64,000 nt of DNA from an uncultured Eubacteriales bacterium (GTDB taxonomy: Bacteria > Acidobacteriota > Aminicenantia > Aminicenantales > Saccharicenantaceae), in NCBI GenBank assembly GCA_964585685.1, contig CAZPEP010000044.1, positions 5,458-69,457 of the forward strand, given 5' to 3'. The notes beneath the pieces are model-generated. The model did no database searches and was not told the origin of the DNA. It saw nothing but the letters and a program-made list of their open reading frames with translations. Position numbers and translations under genes: made by a program. Shown here piece after piece: positions 1,249 to 64,000 of this stretch (position 1 is the stretch's first letter; the number at the start of each line of letters is the position of its first letter).

Positions 1249-4178
1249 CCCACGGAGGCGCTTCCCCGCCCCCTCCCTTCGCGTGAGGAATCCGGGCCGA
1301 AATCCCCGTTCAAAACGAACGCGGCCCAGTGGAACGGATGGGCATATTTTGATCGCAGCATCCGGACCTTGGCAAACCTCAGGGCCGCGGCCTTGCCGTA
1401 GCCCCGCGACAGGTATTCATAGAAACCATCCATGAAATAGGCCGTAGACCTGTCCCCGATAGGCCAGAGCGTCGATACCACCGATTTTGATCCGGCATAG
1501 AAGAACATCCTTGGGAGCCCCAAAAGCCCTTCGCCTCGCTCCAGACTGCCCCGTCCCGTTTGACAGGCCGACAGGACGACGAGGTCGGCGTCCAACCTCA
1601 GGTTATAGATCTCCCGTGCCTGAAGGATCCCGTCCTCCCCGTCGTTCCGACCGACCGAGAGGATCAGGGCTGATCGAAACGGGACCTTCTCATCCAAGAG
1701 CCCATGACAAGCGAAATGGACGATCCGGTAATCCTCAAGGGCCAGCACTTTCAGGTCCTCCTCCGCGGCCCGGGTCCCAAGCAGGATGTCTTTGGACCCT
1801 TTGGGGAAATGCCCGGCGATATCCAAGACCTCTTTCTTGCTGAACGGCAACTGGGAAAGATCGAAACCCTGTCCCTTATAGATCTCACCGACCGTCCATC
1901 CCGCCGTGGCATGCCCTTCCTTATCGACCGTCCCCGCCTTTGTCAAGGCGGGAGCGCCGAGGGCCAGAAGCGTCTTGCGCCACGGCCCAGCCGCTTTCCG
2001 GGAAAGGAAAACGAGGGAAGAAGAAGAAGGGGCATAGGATATCTCGAATCGTTCGATAAGATATCCCGAGACCGGAGCGCCGGACGGACGCAGCGTCTCG
2101 AACGGAAGGTAGTAAAGGATGCCGTCAGGGACGATAATGAGTCGTTTGAGCCCCTCGACGGGAAGGCCGGCGAGGGGCGGGAGGAGCTCGTCGGCGATCC
2201 TTTCCGCCGCGAGTCTCCCAGTAAACCCCTTCCTATCGGGAATCGAGAGGGCCTTGAGATAGCCCCTCAAGGACCTTTCGATCACCTCTCTGGGAGGGAG
2301 ATCGAAGAGCCTCACGCCGTTCTTGGTGATGAAGAACATGTAGGACCGGGCATCGCCGAGGAAGTATTCGATCAGACCCGTCTTTTCGTCCAGAAATTCG
2401 TTCCGAAGTCTTTGGATCGAATAAAGATCGGACGAGACCAAGCCCACAAGTCCGGGCTGTTCGGCTTTCATTTCGGAGATGAGCCTCAGCGATTCGTCTT
2501 CGGCGCGGCCGAGCTTCTTGAGCTTCTCGCCACGCTCCGCCTGCCTCAGGGCAGGATTGGATAACTCCAGAATGAGCGCCGAGATCTCCCTGGATATCTC
2601 TTCCTCCCTCTCCTTCAGGCCCTGCGTCAACCCGACCCGAAAATCGATCCTGGCCTCTCCCAGGCACTCGAGAAAAGCGCGGGCTTTCGCCTTTTCGACG
2701 ATGACGAACATCTCCTCGAGGCGGGTCCCGGACGGGTCCTCGTGGGAGAGCCTAAACAAAAGATTCAGAAGGCTCTCGAAGATCCCGAGCTTGTTCCTGG
2801 CAAAGCCGGCCTTGAACGTTTCCAGGAAGATCCGGCTCCTGATCGTATCGATCACGTCCACGGATTTCTGATAATAATGGAGGGCGTTGACGAGGTCTCC
2901 CCGTTTTTCGAGACATTGACCGAGCCCAAAGTAGGATTCCCAGACGGTATCTTTAAATAGATGAATCGCAGGAAGATCAACCGCATTTGAAAAGAGCTTT
3001 CGAGATTCGTTCAATCTATTCATTTTAAGAAAAACATTTCCTAAATTATTATATATGTTGCCAATAGCCTCTATGTTTTTTTGCTCGTTTGCCTTTGATA
3101 GTGCTAATTTAAAAAAGCTGATTGCGGTATCATATTCATTAAGATTTATATATATCGTCCCTTTATTATTTAAAACTTCAATTTCGGTTTTGACATCTGG
3201 AGACTTGCTCAGCATGTTCAAGCATCTATTAAAATAGCCAAGAGCCTCAATAAAATCGGACCTAATGTTGCTCTGATATGCTTTCTTCTCGAGTACCACA
3301 CCAATGTTGTTGTATGTTTTACATACATCAAGTGCTCGCCCATTCTCTAAGTCAATAGACAATGAATTCTTAAAGTGAATGAGCGCGTTATCATAATCAC
3401 CAAGATTCATGCTAATAAGACCAATATTGCTAACACATTCTGCTTCGGTTTGGCTGTCATTAAGCGGCCTTAAAATAAGAAGCGCCTGCTGGAAATGTCG
3501 GAGGGCCTTTGAATAGTCCGTCGATTTCCAGAAGTAGAGGCCGAGGTTGTTCAGGCATCGCCCCTGTTCGATCTTGAGGTTGAGTCTCATTGCGATTTTC
3601 AGGGCCTCTTCATTGTTCGAGAGGAAGCTCTTCAGGTCGTTCATTTGCCAGTATGTCCCGCTCATCTGACGGAGGCACTTGGCGACGAACTCCTCGCCTT
3701 TGATCCTCCGGCCGATCGCGAGCGCTTCTGAGAACGCCTCCAGGGACCGGGGCAGGGCGTTCGAGAGACGGAGGTCCTTCCCCTGATTGTACAGCCGGAT
3801 GATGTCCAGGGCCGCCCGGCTGATGAAAAGTACTCCGTCCGAGCCGGGAGTCCCGGCCTTCCGGGAGGCCTCGGAAAAGTTCCCCTCGGCCTCGCGGATT
3901 CGCCCCAGGTTCCATTGGAGAAGTCCCAGCTTCATCAGGCACGCGGCTTCGGCCGCCGTATCGTTCGCTTGCCGCGAGATCGTCAAGGCCTCTTGGAACC
4001 GGTCGATGGAACTCTCGAAATCGCCGCGGGCCCTGGCCTCTTCCCCCTTCCGGAAAGCCAGAGTGTAGGCTCCATTGTCCCGAACCCCCGGCTTGTCGGG
4101 GAGGTCCGTCCCCGTCGCGGCCGCGAACCCGGCGAGGGCCCCCGCCAGAAGAATGATGACCCTGCTTCCCCTCCGCAT
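1170..4178 (-). CDS. Secreted TPR-repeat / CHAT-domain (caspase-like His-Cys) protein
   Basis: 1002 aa. N-terminal signal peptide. Long run of TPR-like repeats. C-terminal CHAT hallmarks HFACHG ... LSACQTG. Convergent 79-nt overlap with the anti-sigma gene. Contains an AT-rich internal segment. Confidence 0.8.
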   Translation of the reverse strand: MRRGSRVIILLAGALAGFAAATGTDLPDKPGVRDNGAYTLAFRKGEEARARGDFESSIDRFQEALTISRQANDTAAEAACLMKLGLLQWNLGRIREAEGNFSEASRKAGTPGSDGVLFISRAALDIIRLYNQGKDLRLSNALPRSLEAFSEALAIGRRIKGEEFVAKCLRQMSGTYWQMNDLKSFLSNNEEALKIAMRLNLKIEQGRCLNNLGLYFWKSTDYSKALRHFQQALLILRPLNDSQTEAECVSNIGLISMNLGDYDNALIHFKNSLSIDLENGRALDVCKTYNNIGVVLEKKAYQSNIRSDFIEALGYFNRCLNMLSKSPDVKTEIEVLNNKGTIYINLNEYDTAISFFKLALSKANEQKNIEAIGNIYNNLGNVFLKMNRLNESRKLFSNAVDLPAIHLFKDTVWESYFGLGQCLEKRGDLVNALHYYQKSVDVIDTIRSRIFLETFKAGFARNKLGIFESLLNLLFRLSHEDPSGTRLEEMFVIVEKAKARAFLECLGEARIDFRVGLTQGLKEREEEISREISALILELSNPALRQAERGEKLKKLGRAEDESLRLISEMKAEQPGLVGLVSSDLYSIQRLRNEFLDEKTGLIEYFLGDARSYMFFITKNGVRLFDLPPREVIERSLRGYLKALSIPDRKGFTGRLAAERIADELLPPLAGLPVEGLKRLIIVPDGILYYLPFETLRPSGAPVSGYLIERFEISYAPSSSSLVFLSRKAAGPWRKTLLALGAPALTKAGTVDKEGHATAGWTVGEIYKGQGFDLSQLPFSKKEVLDIAGHFPKGSKDILLGTRAAEEDLKVLALEDYRIVHFACHGLLDEKVPFRSALILSVGRNDGEDGILQAREIYNLRLDADLVVLSACQTGRGSLERGEGLLGLPRMFFYAGSKSVVSTLWPIGDRSTAYFMDGFYEYLSRGYGKAAALRFAKVRMLRSKYAHPFHWAAFVLNGDFGPDSSREGRGRGSASVGQRSREKASNFDSPIFPSESSASTDQ

Positions 4179-4308: not shown

Positions 4309-5265
4309 ATGAGACGTGCAACGATCCTGGCTGCGGCGGCGATCCTCCTGATCGTTGGACCTCTGTCCGCCCAGGCGAAAAGGACGCGGACGGCCGGGAA
4401 GCGATTGGTCGCCACCGTCCCTTTATCGTTCAAGTTCACGGGTTGGGTGTCCGGCGCACCGGCCAAAAAGCTGACGGGCAAGGCTCTTGTCGCTTATCTC
4501 GGCGGGGCCGCCGATGTGGCCCTGCAGTACGGAGTCAAGGACGTTTCCGTCCACCGCTTCAGGCCGGCGGCCCGCACGAAGAAGACCGCTGGCCGGGAAT
4601 TCACCCTCGAGCTGTTCCGGATGGATTCAGCCGCCGACGCTTTTGGCCTTTTCTCTCTCGGGCGCCGGAACGCGGACCGAGCGTCGGCCGCCGTGGCCGC
4701 GCCGAACGTAACCGGGCCGGACAGGGCCGCTTTCGTCAAAGGTTACGTCTATGTCAATATCCGGACAAAGGGGTGCGAGGAGGTCGATGTTGAGAAGATC
4801 GCGGCCGCCGCGGCCAAACGGATCGGTCTTCCCGCGGACCCGCCCCCGCCCGGAATCGCTGGACTCCCCAGGTCGAACATCGTCCCGGGAAGCGAGCGCT
4901 ACATCCGGGGGAATATCACGGCCGGGGCCGAATCTCCGCTCTTGAACAGGGATTTCTGGGGATTCCGGACGGGGACGAGCCGGGCCTTCACGGCCCGCTA
5001 CAGGCCCAAGGACAGTAAGCTCATCGTCGTGGAATTCGTCGAATTGCCTGAGGGCCTCGCCCGAAGCGCCCTCGAGCTCTTCAAGGAATATCTGGAGGAC
5101 GTCCGGGAAGAGGGCGGCGTCGTGACCGGCGCCGATGTCGCCGGAGGCGTCTGTCTCTTCGGCGTGTCCGGGAAGACCGCCGCTCTGATCATCGGAGAGC
5201 CGGACCCGGGGATCGCGCGGGCCCGCCTTTCGGAAGCTCTGGCCGAACCCGGGGACCGGAAATGA
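4309..5265 (+). CDS. Secreted hypothetical protein
   Basis: 318 aa. Signal peptide MRRATILAAAAILLIVGPLSAQA. Consistent GC3-rich codon usage. No recognisable catalytic motif. Confidence 0.5.
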   Translation: MRRATILAAAAILLIVGPLSAQAKRTRTAGKRLVATVPLSFKFTGWVSGAPAKKLTGKALVAYLGGAADVALQYGVKDVSVHRFRPAARTKKTAGREFTLELFRMDSAADAFGLFSLGRRNADRASAAVAAPNVTGPDRAAFVKGYVYVNIRTKGCEEVDVEKIAAAAAKRIGLPADPPPPGIAGLPRSNIVPGSERYIRGNITAGAESPLLNRDFWGFRTGTSRAFTARYRPKDSKLIVVEFVELPEGLARSALELFKEYLEDVREEGGVVTGADVAGGVCLFGVSGKTAALIIGEPDPGIARARLSEALAEPGDRK

Positions 5266-5287: not shown

Positions 5288-5752
5288 TCAAACAGGAGAT
5301 GTCAGCGCCGAGAACGTAAAGTCCCTATAGTGTTCAAGGATGTCCAGGATGAGGGCCTCCTTGGTGATCTTCATGATCTCCCCAGGGGAAAGTTCCTTCA
5401 TGAACTCCATGGCCCTCTCTTCCAAGACGGCGGACTTCGACTTTCTTCCTCTGAGAACGAGCCCAAGCTTGAGTTCGTAGGCGTTCTTCGGAAGGACGAC
5501 CCGATAGTGGAGGTTGTCCGTGTTCGAGCCGGGAAAGCTCAGTTCGAAGTTGATGGAACGGCCCTTGTCTTCGCGGAAACGGACCTTGACGCCGTAATCC
5601 CGCATCTCTTCCTTAAGGCTTTCGAAGGCCGGTTCAGCGATGAATTCGCAGAACTGGGCGAAGCTCTCCAAGGTATCGGCCTTGGCCTTCTCTATGAGCT
5701 TAAAGGCATCGAAGTGCTTTCTTAGCTCGTCCTTCCAGGTTTCTCCGGACAT
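5288..5752 (-). CDS. Hypothetical cytoplasmic protein
   Basis: 154-aa ORF with plausible composition; no recognised domain. Confidence 0.4.
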   Translation of the reverse strand: MSGETWKDELRKHFDAFKLIEKAKADTLESFAQFCEFIAEPAFESLKEEMRDYGVKVRFREDKGRSINFELSFPGSNTDNLHYRVVLPKNAYELKLGLVLRGRKSKSAVLEERAMEFMKELSPGEIMKITKEALILDILEHYRDFTFSALTSPV

Positions 5753-5971
5753 GGGCCCTTCCGTTTCCTAAGATATACGAATGATAGCACACTCCGGGAC
5801 GGAGTTTAAGGAGAAAGAACCCCCCGGGGGGGTTGGTGCCGGCTGATGTCAGCAAAAGGGGGGTGATGATTGAAAATTTGAGGGAGCCCTCTCCAGCCGG
5901 CCAAAGAGAGCCATTCCCATTATATCAGAGCCGAAGGCGAACGCAAGAAGAAACGCAGGATATTTTTGTTG

Positions 5972-6920
5972 TTAATAAATTTCGCCGCTTTCGCGGAGTG
6001 CCCCCCAAACAACTTCCGCGTCGAGGTTCGAAAGGGCGCGAGCGGCTAGCACACGGGTCCGGCCGAAAGGTTCCCAAGCGGGGATGTTCTCTTCGAGGAA
6101 GAGGGCCGTCACGCGCGCGCCGCATGCCGCCGCCAGATGGGTGATCCCCGAATCGTTTCCCAGATAAAGTGGGGCCTCAGCCAGGAGCCCCGCGAGCCCG
6201 AGGATCGACGGCCTCCGCGCCCAGGTCCAGCCGTGCGGGAGAGCCCCCCCCGCGAGGCGCCCGGCGATCGCGGGCCGTTCCTCCGCTTCCCCTGTGACGA
6301 AAACGCCGGGGATCCCTGCGTCCGCCAGCCGGCGGGCGATCTCAAGGAAATTTACGAAAGGCCAAAGCTTGGCCCTGCCCCCGCTTCCCGGATGGACGAC
6401 GGCGAACCGGCCTCCGCTAGGCAGATCGGTCCGGAGCCCGGCGCGCGCCGCGGTCATCCCTCCTTTCTTCGATCGAAGCCGGGAACACTCGTCAAAATCG
6501 GGCACGATCCCGTCCGGAAGAGGAAATCCGGATTCGGTGACCGCGAAAAATCGTCGGCTGATTGAAACGGAATGGGGAGGGGTCGGCGCGGTGAAAAGGA
6601 CCGTTCGGGCTCCCCGCGACTTCAATTCCCCTTCCATTTCGGGCGGGGGCGGCTTCTGCATCCAGCCGACGGCGAGGGACAACTCCGGCCGGGGGCCTGA
6701 CGGCGGAAAGCCCGCGTCCGCGAAAAGCGCCGAGGCCTCACGGCCCTCCACCGGGACTATCCCGTCCGTAATCCCGGCATCGAGGAACAGCCCCCCGTAC
6801 TCTCCCCTGCACAGGAGCGCAAATCGGCGCCCCGGCATAGTCCGGCGCACGTAGGTCATCGAGGGCAGGGCGACGAGAAGGTCGCCCAGGCCTCCCAGGC
6901 GGATCAGGAGAACATCCATG
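5972..6920 (-). CDS. Glycosyltransferase family 9 (LPS heptosyltransferase-like)
   Basis: MDVLLIRLGGLGDLLVALP N-terminus and LYLGNDSGITHLAAACG motif typical of GT9. The ORF-track start (7084) is over-extended; the real start is at the MDVLL methionine, about 6920. Confidence 0.75.
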
Positions 6921-21379: not shown

Positions 21380-21468
21380 GGAACCGGATCGAGACCTCCG
21401 CGCCCCGCGCCTTGACAATACACTATTATTATTATAGGATATAGGAAGATTTAACGAAAGGAGCTCTC

Positions 21469-21543
21469 ATGAAGCGTTTCCTGATTCCGAGAGTATCGCA
21501 CTGTAAAAGCGGCTGCTTGCCGCCCTCCCGAGCAAGAGGCTAA
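21469..21543 (+). CDS. Possible 24-aa upstream ORF / leader peptide (MKRFLIPRVSHCKSGCLPPSRARG)
   Basis: Strong RBS (aaaggag) 7 nt before ATG. Sits 108 nt upstream of the parvulin lipoprotein gene. Shares the MKRF start with the downstream paralog 24203. Confidence 0.25.
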   Translation: MKRFLIPRVSHCKSGCLPPSRARG

Positions 21544-21651
21544 AAGGCTCGCCCGAGAGAGGGCCTGATCCAACCGACGCCTCGGTTGCAAACAGATCCT
21601 CAATATGGTTAACTCTCTTTCCGCCTCTAATGGGCTTAAAAGGAGATCAAG

Positions 21652-22665
21652 ATGAAGAGGATACCGGTTTTATTGCTTGTTTTCGCATTCCTTTTCCCGA
21701 GCTGTAACCGTAAGGCCGAAAAAATGGTGCTCAAGGATGGCACCCCGGCCTTCAAGCTTGCCAGGGACCTGGCGGTCAAGATCCCCATGCTTGATCCCGT
21801 GGAGAATAATGTCCTCATCCGGACCCGGAAGTTTGACATAACGACCGGCGAGACCATACAGGTCCTCCTGGGGAACTTCGGGAATCAAACCGAACAGCTC
21901 AAGGAGTTCGACTCTATTCAACTGAGGGAGTCCATCGAGACCGCCGCCGTCGAGCTCGCCGAGAAAAAACTCCTGCTCCAAGAAGCCGAGAGGGCCAAGG
22001 TGTTCGTCGACCCCGCTGTCCTGGACGAGGTCATTAAGGCTGAACACGAGCGGCTCGGCGGCAAAGAGAAGTTCCTGGAGTCTCTAAAGACGATCGAAGT
22101 CGATGCCGAAACCATCATGAAGAGCCTTGCGGAACAGGTCCGGATAGATGCCTTCTTGGAGAAGACGCTGAACAAGAACGTTACCGTCACGGCTGAAGAA
22201 GTGGCCAGGACCTACGGAGAGGACCTGACGGCTTCCGTCCGCCACATCCTCCTTCTGACACAGGGAAAGACAGGGCCGGAAAAGACTAAAATCCGGAAGC
22301 GGATGGCGGGGATCCTGGCCAGGGCCCGATCCGGGGAGGACTTCGCTGAGCTGGCGAAACAGTACTCCGAAGAGCCGGGCAGCAAGGAGAGCGGGGGCAT
22401 GTATGCGGTCCTCCGCGGGATTACGGACAAGGCCTTTGAGGATGCCGCCTTCTCCGTTCCGATCGGCCAGATTAGCGACATCGTGGAAACGACCTATGGG
22501 TATCACATCCTCCAGATCATCAGCCGGGAGAAAGAGACCCGACCGTTTGACGAGGTCAAGGGCGAGATCGAAAAGCGTATCGCCGGGAGAAAGCGAAAAG
22601 TGATCTTGGACACCTTCCTGACAAAAATAAGGGACAAAGCAGGATTCAAGACCGTGGGCTTCTGA
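21652..22665 (+). CDS. Parvulin-type PPIase lipoprotein (PrsA-like), paralog 1
   Basis: Lipobox LFPSC. Parvulin domain (SVRHILLL ... YGYHILQI). About 60% identical to the 24203..25222 product. Lower GC than paralog 2. Confidence 0.75.
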   Translation: MKRIPVLLLVFAFLFPSCNRKAEKMVLKDGTPAFKLARDLAVKIPMLDPVENNVLIRTRKFDITTGETIQVLLGNFGNQTEQLKEFDSIQLRESIETAAVELAEKKLLLQEAERAKVFVDPAVLDEVIKAEHERLGGKEKFLESLKTIEVDAETIMKSLAEQVRIDAFLEKTLNKNVTVTAEEVARTYGEDLTASVRHILLLTQGKTGPEKTKIRKRMAGILARARSGEDFAELAKQYSEEPGSKESGGMYAVLRGITDKAFEDAAFSVPIGQISDIVETTYGYHILQIISREKETRPFDEVKGEIEKRIAGRKRKVILDTFLTKIRDKAGFKTVGF

Positions 22666-28956: not shown

Positions 28957-29772
28957 TCAGACCTCCTCCGAGAACGAGTCGCGCAGCCTGTCGAAGACGG
29001 TGTACCCGATCACGAACAACAGCAGGCCGGCGAGGAGGGTGACGCCGAGCTTTTTCCAATGGATCAGTTCCCCGTAGAACAGGCAGCTCTGATAGCCGCT
29101 GATGATGTGGGTCATGGGATTAAGGTTGAGGAGGACGCTAAGGAAGTGCGATTTTTTGATGGCCGGCAGGTCGAGCGAGTAGATGATCGGCGTGGAGAAG
29201 AACCAGAAGGTGAGGAGATTGGCCAGGATGTCCTTTATGTCGCGAAAATGCACGGTGAGCGATGAGATGAGCAGGCTGAGCCCCAGGCAGAAGACATACT
29301 GGACCAGGATGACGACGGGCAAGAAGAGTATCCAGAGCGTAAACGACTTTCCCATGATTGGGATGAAGATGAGCAGGATGGGCAGACCGAACAGGAAATG
29401 GACGAGATTGCTCGTCACCGTGACCACGGGCAGGATCTCAGCCGGGAAAAGGATCTTCTTGATCAGGTTGCCGTTGATCATCAGGACGTTGGCCGATTCC
29501 AGGGACGATGAGGTGAACCAGGTCCAAGGCAGGACGCCGCAGAACATATATAGGGCATAAAGCCATGGCGTATCGCCGATGCTCAGGTCTTTGGGCTTGA
29601 GGATGAAGCCGAAGACGACCGTGTAGACGGTCATGAGGAGGAGGGGGTTAAAGAAGGACCAGAGGAAGCCCAGGACGGTGCCGCGATAACGGGCCTTGAG
29701 TTCCCGGCTGACCAGATTCTGGATGAGGACCCGGTACTTCCATACTCCCTTTAGGTTCCGAAACAGGTTCAT
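28957..29772 (-). CDS. wzm: ABC-2 type polysaccharide exporter permease
   Basis: 271 aa, 6 TM helices, ABC-2 family. Immediately adjacent to wzt. Confidence 0.8.
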   Translation of the reverse strand: MNLFRNLKGVWKYRVLIQNLVSRELKARYRGTVLGFLWSFFNPLLLMTVYTVVFGFILKPKDLSIGDTPWLYALYMFCGVLPWTWFTSSSLESANVLMINGNLIKKILFPAEILPVVTVTSNLVHFLFGLPILLIFIPIMGKSFTLWILFLPVVILVQYVFCLGLSLLISSLTVHFRDIKDILANLLTFWFFSTPIIYSLDLPAIKKSHFLSVLLNLNPMTHIISGYQSCLFYGELIHWKKLGVTLLAGLLLFVIGYTVFDRLRDSFSEEV

Positions 29773-61823: not shown

Positions 61824-64000
61824 CTAGCCGTCCTTCTTTCCGGCGGGATCGACGGGGAGCGACTTCCGGAGGAAGCGGCCGGTGTGGGACCCCTCGACGG
61901 CCGCGACCTCCTCTGGAGTCCCTTGGGCGACGATCCGCCCGCCGTCCTCGCCCCCCTCGGGCCCGAGGTCAATAATATAATCGCAAAACTTGATGACATC
62001 AAGGTTGTGTTCGATGACGAGGACCGTGTTCCCCATCCCCGTGAGCTCCGCGAGAACTTCGAGGAGCTTGCGGACGTCGTCGAAGTGGAGCCCTGTCGTC
62101 GGCTCGTCCAAGAGGTAGAGAGTCCGGCCCGTGCCCTTCCGCCCCAGTTCCTTGGTCAGCTTGATGCGCTGAGCTTCGCCGCCCGAAAGGGTTGGGGCAG
62201 GCTGTCCGAGGCGGACGTATCCCAGTCCGACGCGCTTCAGGGTGGCGAGCTTCCGTTTTAGGGCGGGATCGGTCTTCAGATATTCGTAGGCCTCGTCCAC
62301 GGTCATCGCGAGGAAATCGGCGATGTTCCGGCCCTTGTAGGCAACCGCCAGAGTCTCCTTGTTGTACCGCTTCCCCCCGCAGCGGTCGCAGGTCACGAAG
62401 ACGTCGGGCAGGAAGTGCATCTCGATCTTCCGGACGCCCGCCCCCTGGCATTCTTCGCACCGGCCGGCTTTGACGTTGAAGCTGAACCGGCCCGAGCCGA
62501 ATCCCCGGGCCCTGGCCTCGGGCGTCCGCGCGAAGAGCTCGCGCAGGACCGTGAAGAGCCCCGTGTAGGTCGCCGGGTTGGAGCGCGGCGTCCTACCGAT
62601 GGGTTTCTGATCGACCGAGATGACCTTGTCGATCTGGTCCGCTCCGGTCATGCCGGCGTGGACCCCGGCCTTGTGGCCGGCCTTGTAGAGGGAGTTGACG
62701 AGGCTCTTGTACAGGATGTCGTGGACAAGGGTGCTCTTCCCCGATCCGGAGACCCCGGTAACGGCCGTCATCACGGACAGGGGGAGTCGGACGTCGATCC
62801 CCTTGAGATTGTGCTCGGTCGCCTTGTGCACGGTCAGCCAGCCCGTCGGGCGCCGCCGCGACGCGGGCACGGGGACGCATTTCTCGCCGCGCAGGTACTG
62901 GGCGGTGAGGGAATCTGAAGACTCCAGAATCTCGGCGAGCGGCCCCTCGGCCACCTTGAATCCCCCGCCTTCGCCCGCGCCGGGCCCGAGGTCCAGGATG
63001 TGGTCGGCGGCCCGGATCGTCTGCTCGTCGTGCTCCACGACGACGATGGTGTTTCCGGCGTCCCGCAGGCCCTTGAGCATGGAGATCAGGCGGCCGTTGT
63101 CTCTTTGGTGGAGCCCGATGGTCGGTTCGTCCAGAACGTAGAGGACCCCCCTCAGCCCGGCGCCGACCTGGGCGGCCAACCGGACCCGCTGGGCCTCCCC
63201 GCCCGAGAGGGAGATCGTGGGCCGACCCAGCTGGAGATAGGACATCCCCAGCCGGTCCATGATCTCGAGGCGGTCGCGGATCTCTTTGACGATCTTCTCG
63301 GCCACCTCTCTCAGGGCCGGCCGGAAGGCGAAGGCCGCCGCTTCCTCCCTCAGGCGGCCGATGGGCAGGTCGGCGAGCTCGATGATGTTCCGGCCCTGGA
63401 CCTTGACCATCAGGCTCTCTCTTTTGAGCCGGGCGCCCCCGCACAGGGGACAGACGTCCTCGGTCAGCTTGACCTCCCCCCAATCGTTCTCCGCGGTCCG
63501 GGAGCCCAGACCGTGGCATTCGGGGCAGGCCCCGTAAGGGCTGTTGAAGGAGAAATTGCGGGGCTCGGGCTCGGGAAGGCTGATCTCGCAGGCCGGGCAC
63601 CGAAGCCTCAGGGAGAAATAATGCTCCCTCCCCGTGCCGTTAACGACGAGGACCTCGCCCTCGGAAACATCGACGGCCTTGGCGACGGCCTCGGCCAGCC
63701 GGCGGCGGGAGATCTCGGAGACTCGGACCTCGTCGACGAGGACCTCGACCGTGTGCTTCCGGGTCTTTTCCAGGGGGATCGGATCGTCCAGGTCCCGTAT
63801 CGTGCCGTTGACGCGGACGCGGAGGAAGCCCTTCTTCCGCAGGCGCTCGAAGAGCCGGTGGTACTCTCCCTTCCGGCCTTTGACCACGGGGGCGAGGATC
63901 CTGACGGTCTGCCCGCGGAACGCGGCCAGGACCCTCGCGAGGATCTGGTCGGGGGTCTGGGGGACGACCTCCTTCCCGCAGCCGGGGCAGTGCGGGGTCC
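61824..64000 (-). CDS. uvrA: Excinuclease ABC subunit A (5'-truncated by window edge)
   Basis: Two ABC ATPase modules and Zn-finger motifs (CPECHGLG, CEECQGAG). The reading frame continues without a stop to position 64000. Confidence 0.95.
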   Translation of the reverse strand, partial: TPHCPGCGKEVVPQTPDQILARVLAAFRGQTVRILAPVVKGRKGEYHRLFERLRKKGFLRVRVNGTIRDLDDPIPLEKTRKHTVEVLVDEVRVSEISRRRLAEAVAKAVDVSEGEVLVVNGTGREHYFSLRLRCPACEISLPEPEPRNFSFNSPYGACPECHGLGSRTAENDWGEVKLTEDVCPLCGGARLKRESLMVKVQGRNIIELADLPIGRLREEAAAFAFRPALREVAEKIVKEIRDRLEIMDRLGMSYLQLGRPTISLSGGEAQRVRLAAQVGAGLRGVLYVLDEPTIGLHQRDNGRLISMLKGLRDAGNTIVVVEHDEQTIRAADHILDLGPGAGEGGGFKVAEGPLAEILESSDSLTAQYLRGEKCVPVPASRRRPTGWLTVHKATEHNLKGIDVRLPLSVMTAVTGVSGSGKSTLVHDILYKSLVNSLYKAGHKAGVHAGMTGADQIDKVISVDQKPIGRTPRSNPATYTGLFTVLRELFARTPEARARGFGSGRFSFNVKAGRCEECQGAGVRKIEMHFLPDVFVTCDRCGGKRYNKETLAVAYKGRNIADFLAMTVDEAYEYLKTDPALKRKLATLKRVGLGYVRLGQPAPTLSGGEAQRIKLTKELGRKGTGRTLYLLDEPTTGLHFDDVRKLLEVLAELTGMGNTVLVIEHNLDVIKFCDYIIDLGPEGGEDGGRIVAQGTPEEVAAVEGSHTGRFLRKSLPVDPAGKKDG

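Follow-up and report, generated by a model that had tools for sequence, protein, structure and literature searches.

The closest described relative of the protein considered here is DdvA of M. xanthus, a TPR-CHAT anti-sigma factor for which roles as a sensor of a protein signal and as a site-1 protease have been proposed; its periplasmic TPR-CHAT part dimerizes through an interface that is mainly TPR-TPR, and DdvA-like fused proteins have been reported only in the Myxococcota and in one Comamonas (PMC11506125). The craspases, which also combine TPRs with a CHAT protease, have putative anti-sigma factors as their targets, according to the summary given in PMC11506125. Allelic dimorphism and compositional mosaicism are not, in our reading, described in the DdvA paper, and in the literature that we searched no paper connects Aminicenantes with CHAT proteins.

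Here we describe a TPR-CHAT gene, CHAT1, of Candidatus Aminicenantes, which is contained in a 64-kb stretch of DNA that was analysed as a whole and is called the window below. The locus resembles that of DdvA-DdvS in combining an ECF sigma factor, a single-pass anti-sigma factor with a ZAS motif and a putatively exported TPR-CHAT protein with a His-Cys dyad; the ECF sigma gene is adjacent, as in DdvA-like systems, with family matches that are weak. The CHAT domain weakly matches 8rot_B, a 991-aa 'CHAT domain-containing protein' (E 7e-5), which we take to be DdvA. Unlike DdvA, in which the ZAS, TM and TPR-CHAT parts form one polypeptide, the TPR-CHAT protein is here encoded by a separate ORF, and the ZAS and TM parts by the gene for a 227-aa protein. 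Two TPR-CHAT paralogues flank the sigma/anti-sigma pair, which is a further departure from DdvA, as are the presence of a sigma54 activator and of neighbours that are envelope genes rather than CBASS or CRISPR genes. We think it probable, rather than certain, that a strongly AT-rich block within CHAT1 is an ancient, co-adapted and balanced dimorphic TPR specificity cassette in a periplasmic TPR-CHAT protease, and that its AT-richness is a by-product.

Genes of the locus

The product of CHAT1 (Table 1) starts with a stretch resembling a signal peptide and has about 11 TPRs and a CHAT domain (Pfam PF12770, residues 657-959, E 1.9e-70, 238 bits against a cut-off of 24), and it matches multiple TPR Pfam families; 863 homologues were found, with orthologue identities ranging from 89 % down to 50 %. 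Residues H821/H825 and C872 are invariant in an alignment of 22 CHAT1 orthologues, and the protein carries a caspase-like His-Cys dyad that is predicted to be catalytic. Judging from its N-terminus, CHAT1 is probably exported (secreted, periplasmic). A second TPR-CHAT paralogue, CHAT2, is located about 5 kb from CHAT1, just outside the window, and is a distinct gene beside both of the classes described below; the His/Cys motifs are intact and the N-termini signal-peptide-like in both proteins. In a structure model the TPR array of CHAT1 is a continuous helical-repeat solenoid (residues 36-445, pLDDT 80-95); the CHAT domain is badly modelled (pLDDT <50), and the cassette is not placeable relative to the active site. 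Foldseek searches with this model returned only generic TPR solenoids, for example LGN/Pins, and the CHAT1 solenoid appears to resemble the LGN-like peptide-binding type, a function that would be assigned by analogy.

The ECF sigma factor is recognized by Pfam Sigma70_r2 and r4_2 matches that are barely over their cut-offs and by an NCBIfam sigma70-ECF score (39.2 bits) that is under its cut-off of 42.9; its gene overlaps the start of the putative anti-sigma gene, and the synteny is conserved in all loci compared. The putative anti-sigma factor has an HISACSDC motif, one TM helix and a small predicted periplasmic domain, and the 3' end of its gene overlaps the 3' end of CHAT1 by 79 bp. It has no match to a Pfam anti-sigma family and is assigned from motif and context; it adjoins the ECF sigma gene in all loci and is not differentiated between the classes. 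The DUF6599 gene, which is transcribed divergently, is also a conserved neighbour and shows ordinary identity in both classes. Genes within about 10 kb are of the envelope type (GT9, LPG synthase, M23 and S41 peptidases), there are no CRISPR or cas genes among the called neighbours in the inspected ~19-kb locus, and PADLOC gave generic matches only, with no specific defence family, for seven locus proteins. The neighbours suggest envelope biogenesis rather than defence, and an analogy with phage sensing is a loose one.

Table 1. Coordinates of features at the CHAT1 locus (positions in the window)
Feature	Position	Strand	Basis
ECF-type sigma-70 factor, 181 aa	36..581	+	Pfam, NCBIfam, synteny
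Putative ZAS-type transmembrane anti-sigma factor, 227 aa	565..1248	+	Motif and context
CHAT1, predicted TPR-CHAT protease gene containing the cassette, 1002 aa	1170..4178	-	ORF, translation, Pfam
CHAT1 predicted catalytic motifs HFACHG (821-826) and SACQT (870-874)	1557..1718	-	Motif positions
3' junction motif WESYFGLGQC, codons 413-422, invariant, directly downstream of block	2913..2942	-	A/B alignment
Class A allele of the dimorphic AT-rich TPR cassette, codons 233-412	2943..3482	-	L086 vs L087 comparison
5' junction motif HFQQA, codons 228-232, conserved, directly upstream of block	3483..3497	-	A/B alignment
CHAT1 signal-peptide-like N-terminus (MRRGSRVIILLAGALAGFAAATG)	4110..4178	-	Read from translation
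DUF6599 protein, signal-peptide-like N-terminus	4309..5265	+	Pfam DUF6599 E 5e-23, translation

Base composition of CHAT1

The preliminary description drew attention to an AT-rich segment at positions 2950-3540, and a sliding-window scan of the whole 64 kb bears this out (GC 0.360), although the background, which had been put at 67 % GC, is 62.2 %. The lowest-GC 591-bp window of the 64 kb is that at 2948-3538 (GC 0.357), about 6.7 sd below the mean of 0.622 (sd 0.040), and the second-lowest region in the same scan has a GC of 0.516; the minimum for 200-bp windows is 0.285. The biological block as defined below occupies 2943-3482 (GC 0.34), and the range given earlier was thus right as to the location of the AT-richness and about 60 bp too long at its high-coordinate end. 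GC3 falls from about 0.8 to 0.2-0.5 over codons ~226-420, with GC1 and GC2 dropping as well, and is 0.34 in the cassette against 0.74-0.82 outside it. The segment had also been remarked upon for its N, K, I and Y residues; FYMINK residues make up 37 % of it against 25 % of the flanking TPRs. In composition the cassette is as atypical as would be expected of a foreign island (GC 0.36 against 0.62).

Two classes of cassette

Loci L086 and L087 are 99.9 % identical over 5.7 kb apart from a block of 536 bp, in which DNA identity is 40-55 %; the ~5.2 kb outside the block contains five mismatches. The cassette so delimited is 180 codons long and encodes four TPR units, or eight helices (H242-258 to H389-401 in the structure model, pLDDT 80-95). 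There are two cassette classes, A (that of the present window) and B, which are about 33 % identical and have the TPR framework alone in common. At the 5' junction the identity of A and B alleles stops directly after CAGCAGGCGCT, a position common to clades 0, 1 and 2; at the 3' junction it restarts at CTGGGAATCATACTTTGG, a boundary that is identical in every A/B pair, and all of the 22 orthologues compared have W413 and E414.

Every CHAT1 orthologue has an AT-rich block at codons 233-412, and this holds for at least three clades and for identities as low as ~55 %. Clades 0, 1 and 2 each have both classes at this locus, and A and B loci of clades 0 and 2 have the same boundaries. Individual pairs may be identical in their flanks and only 32 % identical in the cassette (P0004/P0006), and similar values are seen for P0013/P0016 (98 % flank, 38 % cassette) and P0011/P0012 (92 % and 30 %). 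When the 139 pairs with a flank identity of at least 0.85 are considered, cassette identity is bimodal, with 43 pairs at 30-40 %, none at 40-50 % and 96 at 50 % or above. Neighbour-joining (NJ) trees give 100 % bootstrap support to the A|B split for the cassette and to the clade split for the flanks, and 0 % to the alternatives. L098 (class A) and L087 (class B), which are contigs of one sample series, are 100.000 % identical over 4772 + 127 bp of flank, so that 4.9 kb of flanking sequence is the same and the cassettes differ. The cassette moves as a block by homologous recombination in the conserved junctions, and through such exchange the flanks can be 100 % identical while the cassettes differ. 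To this extent the 'shuffling' proposed in the preliminary description was correct, the cassette being exchanged as a unit, with sharp junctions, between flanks that are 99.9-100 % identical (L086/L087 and L098/L087).

Within a class, cassettes of different clades are 45 % identical against 62 % for the flanks, and this lower similarity of the cassette indicates old co-divergence rather than import. The within-class dN/dS of the cassette is 0.06-0.23 in most pairs, rising to 0.29-0.48 in three pairs of class-A cassettes from clade 0, and that of the flanks is 0.06-0.26, mostly 0.12-0.19. Each cassette class evolves under purifying selection; positive selection within classes was considered and rejected, dN/dS being well below 1. 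The result is a trans-specific dimorphism, in which two discrete and deeply divergent classes with the same locus and junctions persist in several clades, and two attributes of a balanced specificity-cassette polymorphism are present, namely discrete classes in conserved flanks and classes that are older than the clades that carry them. Sharing of cassettes between distant lineages was also sought, and only six pairs, all marginal, are closer in the cassette than in the flanks; none of the six involves this clade. P0121, considered as a possible hybrid or silent copy, is a class-A orthologue truncated by a contig end.

Co-variation with CHAT2

Along 19 kb, the A and B loci fail to align only at the CHAT1 cassette and at the TPR half of CHAT2. 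Identity in the CHAT2 TPR zone is 0.54-0.88 between a types, 0.64-0.81 between b types and 0.45-0.52 between a and b, and the protease half of CHAT2 groups by clade. The class of the CHAT1 cassette co-varies with the TPR half of CHAT2, in perfect association at 9/9 loci from four clades, which are not phylogenetically independent. Contig Ga0315273_10003579 combines class B with a b-type CHAT2; on the L098 contig, Ga0315275_10001730, of which 5.4 of 19.4 kb was covered, CHAT2 is unreadable. The DNA between the CHAT1 cassette and CHAT2, which encodes the ECF sigma/anti-sigma pair, is undifferentiated between the classes; from the cassette to the TPR half of CHAT2 the distance is ~7 kb. The TPR half of CHAT2 is also AT-rich, and in both genes the AT-rich zones are the differentiated zones. 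The CHAT1 cassette and the CHAT2 core show no charge complementarity; the co-variation suggests that the two modules may interact physically.

Origin of the cassette and of its AT-richness

Across one phylum, the GC3 of the cassette remains at 0.26-0.37 while that of the flanks spans 0.25-0.74 (GC3_cassette = 0.24 + 0.20 x GC3_flank; 97 genes). Substitutions polarised by parsimony, which is error-prone at the dS of 0.3-0.5 concerned, number S>W 435 : W>S 215 in the flanks (GC 0.57, implied GC* 0.40) and S>W 70 : W>S 94 in the cassette (GC 0.35, GC* 0.42; Fisher p 2e-8 for cassette against flank). Per-site substitution rates of the cassette are about those of the flanks, and its present GC lies near the mutational GC*. 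An old import would by now have ameliorated, given the saturation of synonymous sites between clades, and the low GC thus represents a maintained equilibrium. As a control, GC-rich CHAT-TPR paralogue families lack the dip and have a GC3 of 0.83 in the equivalent TPRs. The difference between flank and cassette (dGC3) is 0.18-0.37 in dimorphic clades and mostly ~0 in single-class clades, two of which, with 2-3 sequences each, still dip (dGC3 0.25 and 0.13).

The suggestion first made was that a resident gene had recently received a TPR cassette, by acquisition or shuffling, from a donor of low GC; this would account for a composition that is atypical at all three codon positions and for the exchange of the cassette as a block, and low-GC Aminicenantes with homologous genes do exist (genome GC down to 0.26). 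We now regard this as extremely improbable, as homologues in relatives carry the same AT-rich block, in all orthologues and at least three clades, the within-class cassette has diverged more than the flanks between clades, and the cassette is near compositional equilibrium rather than ameliorating strongly. An exhaustive representative search for a donor with the segment gave nothing above 39 % identity in other protein contexts, the matches being generic multi-TPR proteins only (24-39 %), and phage and plasmid collections held no match or nothing above 31 %; the cassette is neither absent from relatives nor closer in a donor, as a foreign insert would be. Programmed intragenomic switching, in which a silent alternative cassette is converted into CHAT1 in the manner of pilE/pilS-type antigenic variation, is very unlikely, even though L098 and L087 carry alternative cassettes in identical 4.9-kb flanks within one sample series, the junctions are sharp and conserved, and contigs break at the cassette. 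Searches by tblastn and blastn of the 64-kb window and the fetched loci, which represent parts of genomes, detected neither class a second time, identity of the neighbouring paralogue to A and to B is only 31-34 %, and the linkage with CHAT2 type would require two coordinated switches. There are no tandem, direct or inverted repeats involving the segment, a result that also led us to reject repeat-driven concerted evolution.

Confinement of the variable region within an otherwise conserved gene might recall targeted hypermutation by a diversity-generating retroelement (DGR) or similar device, to which we attach next to no credence: neither the window nor the loci contain a template repeat, the alleles form two discrete classes with indels rather than an adenine-specific scatter, purifying selection operates within the classes, and a typical DGR variable region is far shorter than 536 bp. 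Just as negligible is the prospect of an artefact, through chimeric assembly, which had been raised at the outset, or through two paralogues being mistaken for alleles. All of the data are metagenome assemblies and the paralogue CHAT2 is nearby, but the same in-frame mosaic with the same junctions is seen in independent short-read and long-read assemblies (JGI, Logan, ENA and NCBI), the A and B alleles share identical neighbours on both sides, and CHAT2 is present alongside both classes. It is conceivable, and in our view unlikely, that the AT-richness itself is selected, either for rare-codon slowing during TPR folding or export or as AT-rich binding or silencing DNA. Such selection would fit the steadiness of cassette GC3 over the wide range of flank GC3, the AT-richness of both variable modules, and the purifying selection on the cassette, which is hence not decaying. 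Against it, A and B share only ~45 % DNA identity, so that there is no conserved DNA or RNA element, there is no Rfam hit and no terminator, and promoter-like sites and small ORFs occur at chance level; moreover, in paralogue families that are just as GC-rich the same TPRs are encoded at the GC3 of 0.83 given above, substitution rates match those of the flanks with standing GC near the mutational GC*, and the dip tracks the dimorphism across clades.

We suggest instead that the AT-richness is a by-product. The block would be recombinationally isolated between the classes, each of which may pass through recurrent low frequencies, and it would thereby escape GC-biased gene conversion or weak selection, the force that would hold the rest of the genome above an AT-biased mutational equilibrium. 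The ideas that mutation is AT-biased and that GC is linked to recombination are both established (PMC2936535, PMC2936529, PMC4450053). By our estimate, halving recombination or Ne would bring GC3 to only ~0.57, not 0.35, and extra assumptions such as frequency oscillations are therefore needed.

Possible role and implications

In the reading that we prefer, that of an ancient balanced dimorphism, the two classes would be kept by balancing selection, probably frequency-dependent, and the cassette would set what CHAT1 recognises. The CHAT1 and CHAT2 modules may be co-adapted through mutual contact, as the mainly TPR-TPR dimer interface of DdvA suggests by analogy, or through binding of one common polymorphic ligand. 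In line with the proposal made for DdvA, both proteases would be signal-gated site-1 proteases whose target is the neighbouring ZAS anti-sigma/ECF sigma pair; protease activity, substrate, ligand and CHAT1-CHAT2 contact are all predicted from related systems.

More tentatively, and with considerable doubt, the locus might be viewed as a 'specificity supergene in miniature', in which two exported TPR-CHAT proteases, through variable TPR modules that match each other, form two mating-type-like ancient haplotypes that gate an ECF sigma pathway. If this were so, the haplotypes could serve in kin or non-self recognition, or in sensing of a polymorphic phage or competitor protein, and epistatic selection would hold them together over 5 kb of DNA that recombines freely. 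AT-richness would then be a general mark from which long-term isolation from recombination could be read in GC-rich bacteria, and the locus would amount to a natural experiment on the forces that keep the GC of bacterial genomes high.

A sharp intragenic drop in GC, which is usually read as recent transfer, can mark ancient balanced polymorphism, which is of consequence for the reading of compositional anomalies in genome scans. The likely specificity module of a periplasmic TPR-CHAT/ECF sigma system has also been located, in a group whose only characterised member, DdvA, has no known signal, and the two natural alleles and their co-varying partner provide handles for finding what such sensors recognise. 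With a steady cassette GC3 of ~0.3 and recent substitution spectra that are similar in cassette and flanks, the gene offers an unusually clean internal contrast, by which recombination-linked forces such as GC-biased gene conversion on the one hand and selection on the other can be tested as what holds bacterial GC above mutational equilibrium.

Comparison with known systems

The combination of a TPR array with a CHAT caspase-like protease is shared with the craspase Csx29 of type III-E CRISPR (PMC10028731, PMC9729208). Csx29 is cytoplasmic and RNA-guided via Cas7-11, whereas CHAT1 has a signal-peptide-like N-terminus and scores only 15 bits against NCBIfam CAS_csx29 (cut-off 300), and it is thus not Csx29.

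The narrow footprint of putative ancient balancing selection (~0.5 kb here), the trans-specific allele classes and the free recombination up to the block boundaries are as in fungal heterokaryon-incompatibility genes (PMC11138114). Unlike those genes, the present system is prokaryotic and haploid, with recombination by gene conversion or transformation. To our knowledge the fungal cases show nothing like the shift in composition seen in the block.

Staphylococcus agr groups and PlcR-PapR pherotypes are the same kind of specificity-group polymorphism as the comQXPA pherotypes of Bacillus. With the latter the CHAT locus shares discrete divergent classes in conserved flanks and two components that co-vary, and in both the classes cut across species and do not follow the phylogeny of the strains (PMC4408185, PMC6334282). 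No signal peptide gene of the pherotype type was identified at the CHAT locus. Pherotype loci hold signal and receptor in one contiguous block, whereas the modules described here are ~5 kb apart with undifferentiated, recombining genes between them, and the proteins, of two classes so far, are predicted proteases rather than kinases or regulators.

The AT-rich segment and its host gene

The preliminary description placed a strong dip in G+C content at 2950-3540, and this is borne out (GC 0.360). The minimum-GC 591-bp interval of the 64 kb lies at 2948-3538 with a value of 0.357 (mean 0.622, SD 0.040), the second-lowest region of the window reaches 0.516, and the minimum in 200-bp intervals is 0.285; the background, first put at about 67 %, is 62 %. 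The segment lies within a gene that we call CHAT1, whose product combines a CHAT caspase-like domain (Pfam PF12770, E-value 1.9e-70) with a long array of TPRs, behind an N-terminus that resembles a signal peptide. The repeats are rich in N, K, I and Y as had been noted, with FYMINK residues at 37 % against 25 % in the flanking TPRs, in the same direction as the nucleotide shift. This is not the whole cause, however, since all three codon positions are AT-enriched and GC3 (GC at third codon positions) drops from about 0.8 to 0.2-0.5 across codons ~226-420, which places the anomaly at the nucleotide level. Nor is AT-richness forced by TPR coding, since in Aminicenantes genomes that are just as GC-rich, other CHAT-TPR paralogue families have the equivalent TPRs at GC3 0.66-0.83. 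The other mildly low-GC spots do not come near the cassette value, and no Rfam family was found at gathering score across window positions 1-64000.

Positions of features in the window and on its contig (L168)
Feature	Position	Strand	Remark
CHAT1 ORF, 1002 aa	1170..4178	-	Contains the AT-rich segment
Cassette block	2943-3482 (codons 233-412)		From comparison of loci L086 and L087
CHAT1/putative anti-sigma 3′ overlap	1170-1248	-/+	Convergent, 79 bp
Low-GC spot	5389-5979		GC 0.525; 154-aa ORF and adjoining spacer
Low-GC spot	21412-22002		GC 0.516
Low-GC spot	29049-29639		GC 0.538
tRNA-Pro CGG	63148-63237	-	Sole tRNA of the window
Sigma54-dependent activator	L168:14279-15223		Outside the window
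CHAT2	L168 15248-18307		Just left of window position 1

Full-length CHAT1 orthologues form a graded series, from 89 % to about 50 % identity, in Candidatus Aminicenantes. Their DNA, from independent JGI, Logan, ENA and NCBI assemblies of short and long reads, keeps the gene order DUF6599, CHAT1, a 227-aa protein, ECF sigma, sigma54 activator and a second TPR-CHAT gene (CHAT2), and in every one GC3 is low (0.2-0.5) over the corresponding codons; relatives with the same AT-rich segment were among the findings that the preliminary description said would argue against a recent insertion. Several species-representative metagenome-assembled genomes (MAGs) with clear CHAT1-family homologues (L016, L028, L011, L014 and others) are labelled Promethearchaeota, Atribacteria, 'uncultured Eubacteriales' or Saccharibacteria, which probably reflects binning contamination or placeholder taxonomy.

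Two classes of cassette

An alignment of 22 orthologues separates the segment into two classes, A (that of the window) and B, with about 30-33 % mutual identity. Proteins P0004 and P0006 are 100 % identical in their flanks and 32 % identical in the cassette; the corresponding values are 98 and 38 % for P0013 and P0016, and 92 and 30 % for P0011 and P0012. Among 133 unique full-length genes, the 139 pairs with flanks at least 85 % identical are strictly bimodal in cassette identity (43 at 30-40 %, none at 40-50 % and 96 at 50 % or above). Locus L086 (class A) matches L087 (class B) at about 99.9 % identity over 5.7 kb, with five mismatches outside a single 536-bp block that is AT-rich in both and only 40-55 % identical. 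L098 (class A), from a JGI sample numbered consecutively with that of L087, matches L087 at 100.000 % identity both downstream of the block, over 4772 bp, and upstream of it, over 127 bp. Cassette exchange, one part of the original proposal, is thus real. The junctions fall in conserved motifs, HFQQA upstream and WESYFGLGQC downstream, and their residue positions are shared by clades 0, 1 and 2 of the family; the block is confidently modelled as four TPR units (eight helices) in mid-solenoid, with both junctions predicted to fall within helices.

Breaks in metagenome contigs tend to fall at or inside the cassette (at L098:1-130, where the contig begins 127 bp upstream of it, and in the 3152-bp contig of P0121, which ends at codon 271), as expected of an assembly graph for a sample in which the two alleles occur together. 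Frameshifts or truncations affect CHAT1 or CHAT2 within the AT-rich zone in several long-read MAGs (contig-named ENA/MFD assemblies; L008:4679-5249, L010, L169:12584-14890); they may stem from homopolymer errors in sequencing or from genuine pseudogenisation.

Age of the classes and selection

In neighbour-joining trees (500 bootstraps) the cassette splits A from B, and the flanks split clade 0 from clade 1, each at 100 %, with the alternative splits at 0 %. Mean cassette and flank identities are 0.33 and 0.84 for A1-B1 (class letter, clade number), 0.45 and 0.62 for A1-A0, and 0.43 and 0.60 for B1-B0. On these comparisons the cassette classes predate the clades. Within a class the cassette diverges alongside the clades, slightly faster than the flanks, contrary to the expectation for recent lateral import; in only six pairs overall, all marginal, is it more similar than the flanks. 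In within-class cassette comparisons dN/dS mostly lies at 0.06-0.23, rising to 0.29-0.48 in three clade-0 pairs of class A, and for the flanks it is 0.06-0.26, mostly 0.12-0.19; such purifying selection indicates that both classes are functional alleles. The dimorphism is, as judged from sequence, trans-specific with a very narrow footprint, and we infer that it is under balancing selection.

A co-varying partner

CHAT2, about 5 kb away, is also a compositional mosaic, with GC3 of 0.2-0.5 over the TPR half (about 600 N-terminal codons) and 0.7-0.9 over the protease half. When class-A loci and four class-B loci were compared with the window feature by feature along 19 kb of DNA, all other genes showed ordinary identity in keeping with phylogeny, the class-B loci L087 and L003 being nearer the window than the class-A locus L002. 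The only two exceptions, the CHAT1 cassette (GC 0.34) and the CHAT2 TPR half (GC 0.40), align with the A-loci only and with essentially none of the four B-loci; no third class-specific gene was found within the 19 kb. Across four clades the CHAT2 TPR zone groups by CHAT1 class (a-a 0.54-0.88, b-b 0.64-0.81, a-b 0.45-0.52, where a and b are the matching CHAT2 types), whereas the protease half groups by clade. Class and type are associated in all nine loci (roughly p = 0.008, ignoring phylogeny), and CHAT2 differentiation peaks at residues ~251-400, homologous to the CHAT1 cassette. The ~5 kb between the modules, comprising the CHAT1 C-terminal part, anti-sigma, ECF sigma, sigma54 activator and CHAT2 protease half, shows no class differentiation. 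Linkage across recombining DNA argues for epistatic selection, and the two variable modules appear to be co-adapted.

Recent horizontal acquisition of the cassette from a low-GC donor, as first proposed, is rejected on the basis of the AT-rich block in all orthologues and of within-class co-divergence with the clades, and assembly artefact or paralogue confusion on that of the independent assemblies and identical synteny; diversity-generating retroelement (DGR) activity or hypermutation was likewise rejected as the source of variation. Programmed switching from a silent copy is unlikely, as ~70 kb contain no such copy and it would take two coordinated switches. The best reading of the feature is a balanced specificity-cassette polymorphism that is distinctive in its composition and has a co-varying partner at a physically separate site.

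Maintenance of low G+C

With clades 0 and 1 saturated at synonymous sites, a single old import would have ameliorated, and the low GC must therefore reflect an equilibrium that is maintained. When substitutions from four independent triplets are polarised and pooled, those of the flanks run strongly from GC to AT (435:215; standing GC 0.57, implied equilibrium 0.40), AT-biased input being usual in GC-rich bacteria (PMC2936535, PMC2936529), and those of the cassette are balanced (70:94; standing GC 0.35, implied 0.42; Fisher p = 2e-8 for the contrast), at similar per-site rates in both zones. Over 97 family members cassette GC3 follows 0.24 + 0.20 x flank GC3, remaining at 0.26-0.37 while flank GC3 spans 0.25-0.74. 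The AT-rich zone is the class-differentiated zone in both CHAT1 and CHAT2. Among clades with flank GC3 of at least 0.40, the GC3 dip of the cassette relative to the flank is 0.18-0.37 in dimorphic clades and mostly about 0 in single-class ones (p ~0.014, small n). Two poorly sampled single-class clades keep a dip, of 0.25 in clade 7 (L011, L120, L123) and 0.13 in clade 12 (L118, L124); either their second class is unsampled or the dip is not strictly dependent on dimorphism.

The cassette appears to sit at mutational equilibrium, escaping whatever force raises GC elsewhere, with weak selection and recombination-linked biased gene conversion (PMC4450053) as candidates: the block would be recombinationally isolated between classes, and the long-term effective size of each class probably reduced. 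By our estimate, simply halving this force gives GC3 of ~0.57, short of 0.35, and direct selection for AT-richness itself is therefore a live, if improbable, rival to such an escape.

Neighbouring genes and possible function

The 227-aa protein, the putative anti-sigma factor, has a ZAS-type H-x3-C-x2-C motif (HISACSDC), one transmembrane helix and a small periplasmic domain, and its gene overlaps the start of the ECF sigma gene, whose family match is weak. Its convergent overlap with CHAT1 is also called in L001, L003, L086 and L087. Past residue ~960 the CHAT1 tail is of low complexity and little conserved, so that the functional C-terminus, or the real stop codon, may be earlier. The sigma54-dependent activator (309-322 aa) has AAA+ and HTH parts only, without a receiver or sensor domain, and a PADLOC match to the PspF/RtcR-type AAA_HTH region; wherever a locus reaches far enough, it lies between ECF sigma and CHAT2, the one exception being L169, a fragmented assembly of long reads with no call for this gene. 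Two alternative sigma systems may accordingly be integrated in the module. Within about 10 kb the neighbours look like envelope genes rather than a defence island, and PADLOC on seven of the locus proteins yielded nothing beyond generic hits.

Each of the two TPR-CHAT proteins begins with a signal-peptide-like stretch and keeps its His/Cys motifs intact, and the modelled TPR solenoid resembles peptide-binding LGN/Pins arrays. In the DdvA-DdvS system of M. xanthus a ZAS anti-sigma is combined with a periplasmic TPR-CHAT, which dimerises mainly through its TPRs and is proposed to be a protein-signal sensor and its own site-1 protease ahead of RseP cleavage (PMC11506125). By analogy, CHAT1 and CHAT2 may be signal-gated periplasmic proteases that act on the anti-sigma, with the variable TPR modules as the surface that recognises either the partner module or a shared polymorphic ligand.

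We found no published report of a balanced specificity-cassette polymorphism in this TPR-CHAT family, and the literature library searched contained nothing that connects Aminicenantes with CHAT proteins. Fungal het genes provide a comparable trans-specific balanced polymorphism with a narrow footprint (PMC11138114), and the closest characterised system is DdvA-DdvS, although the parts that are fused in DdvA are split into separate genes here.
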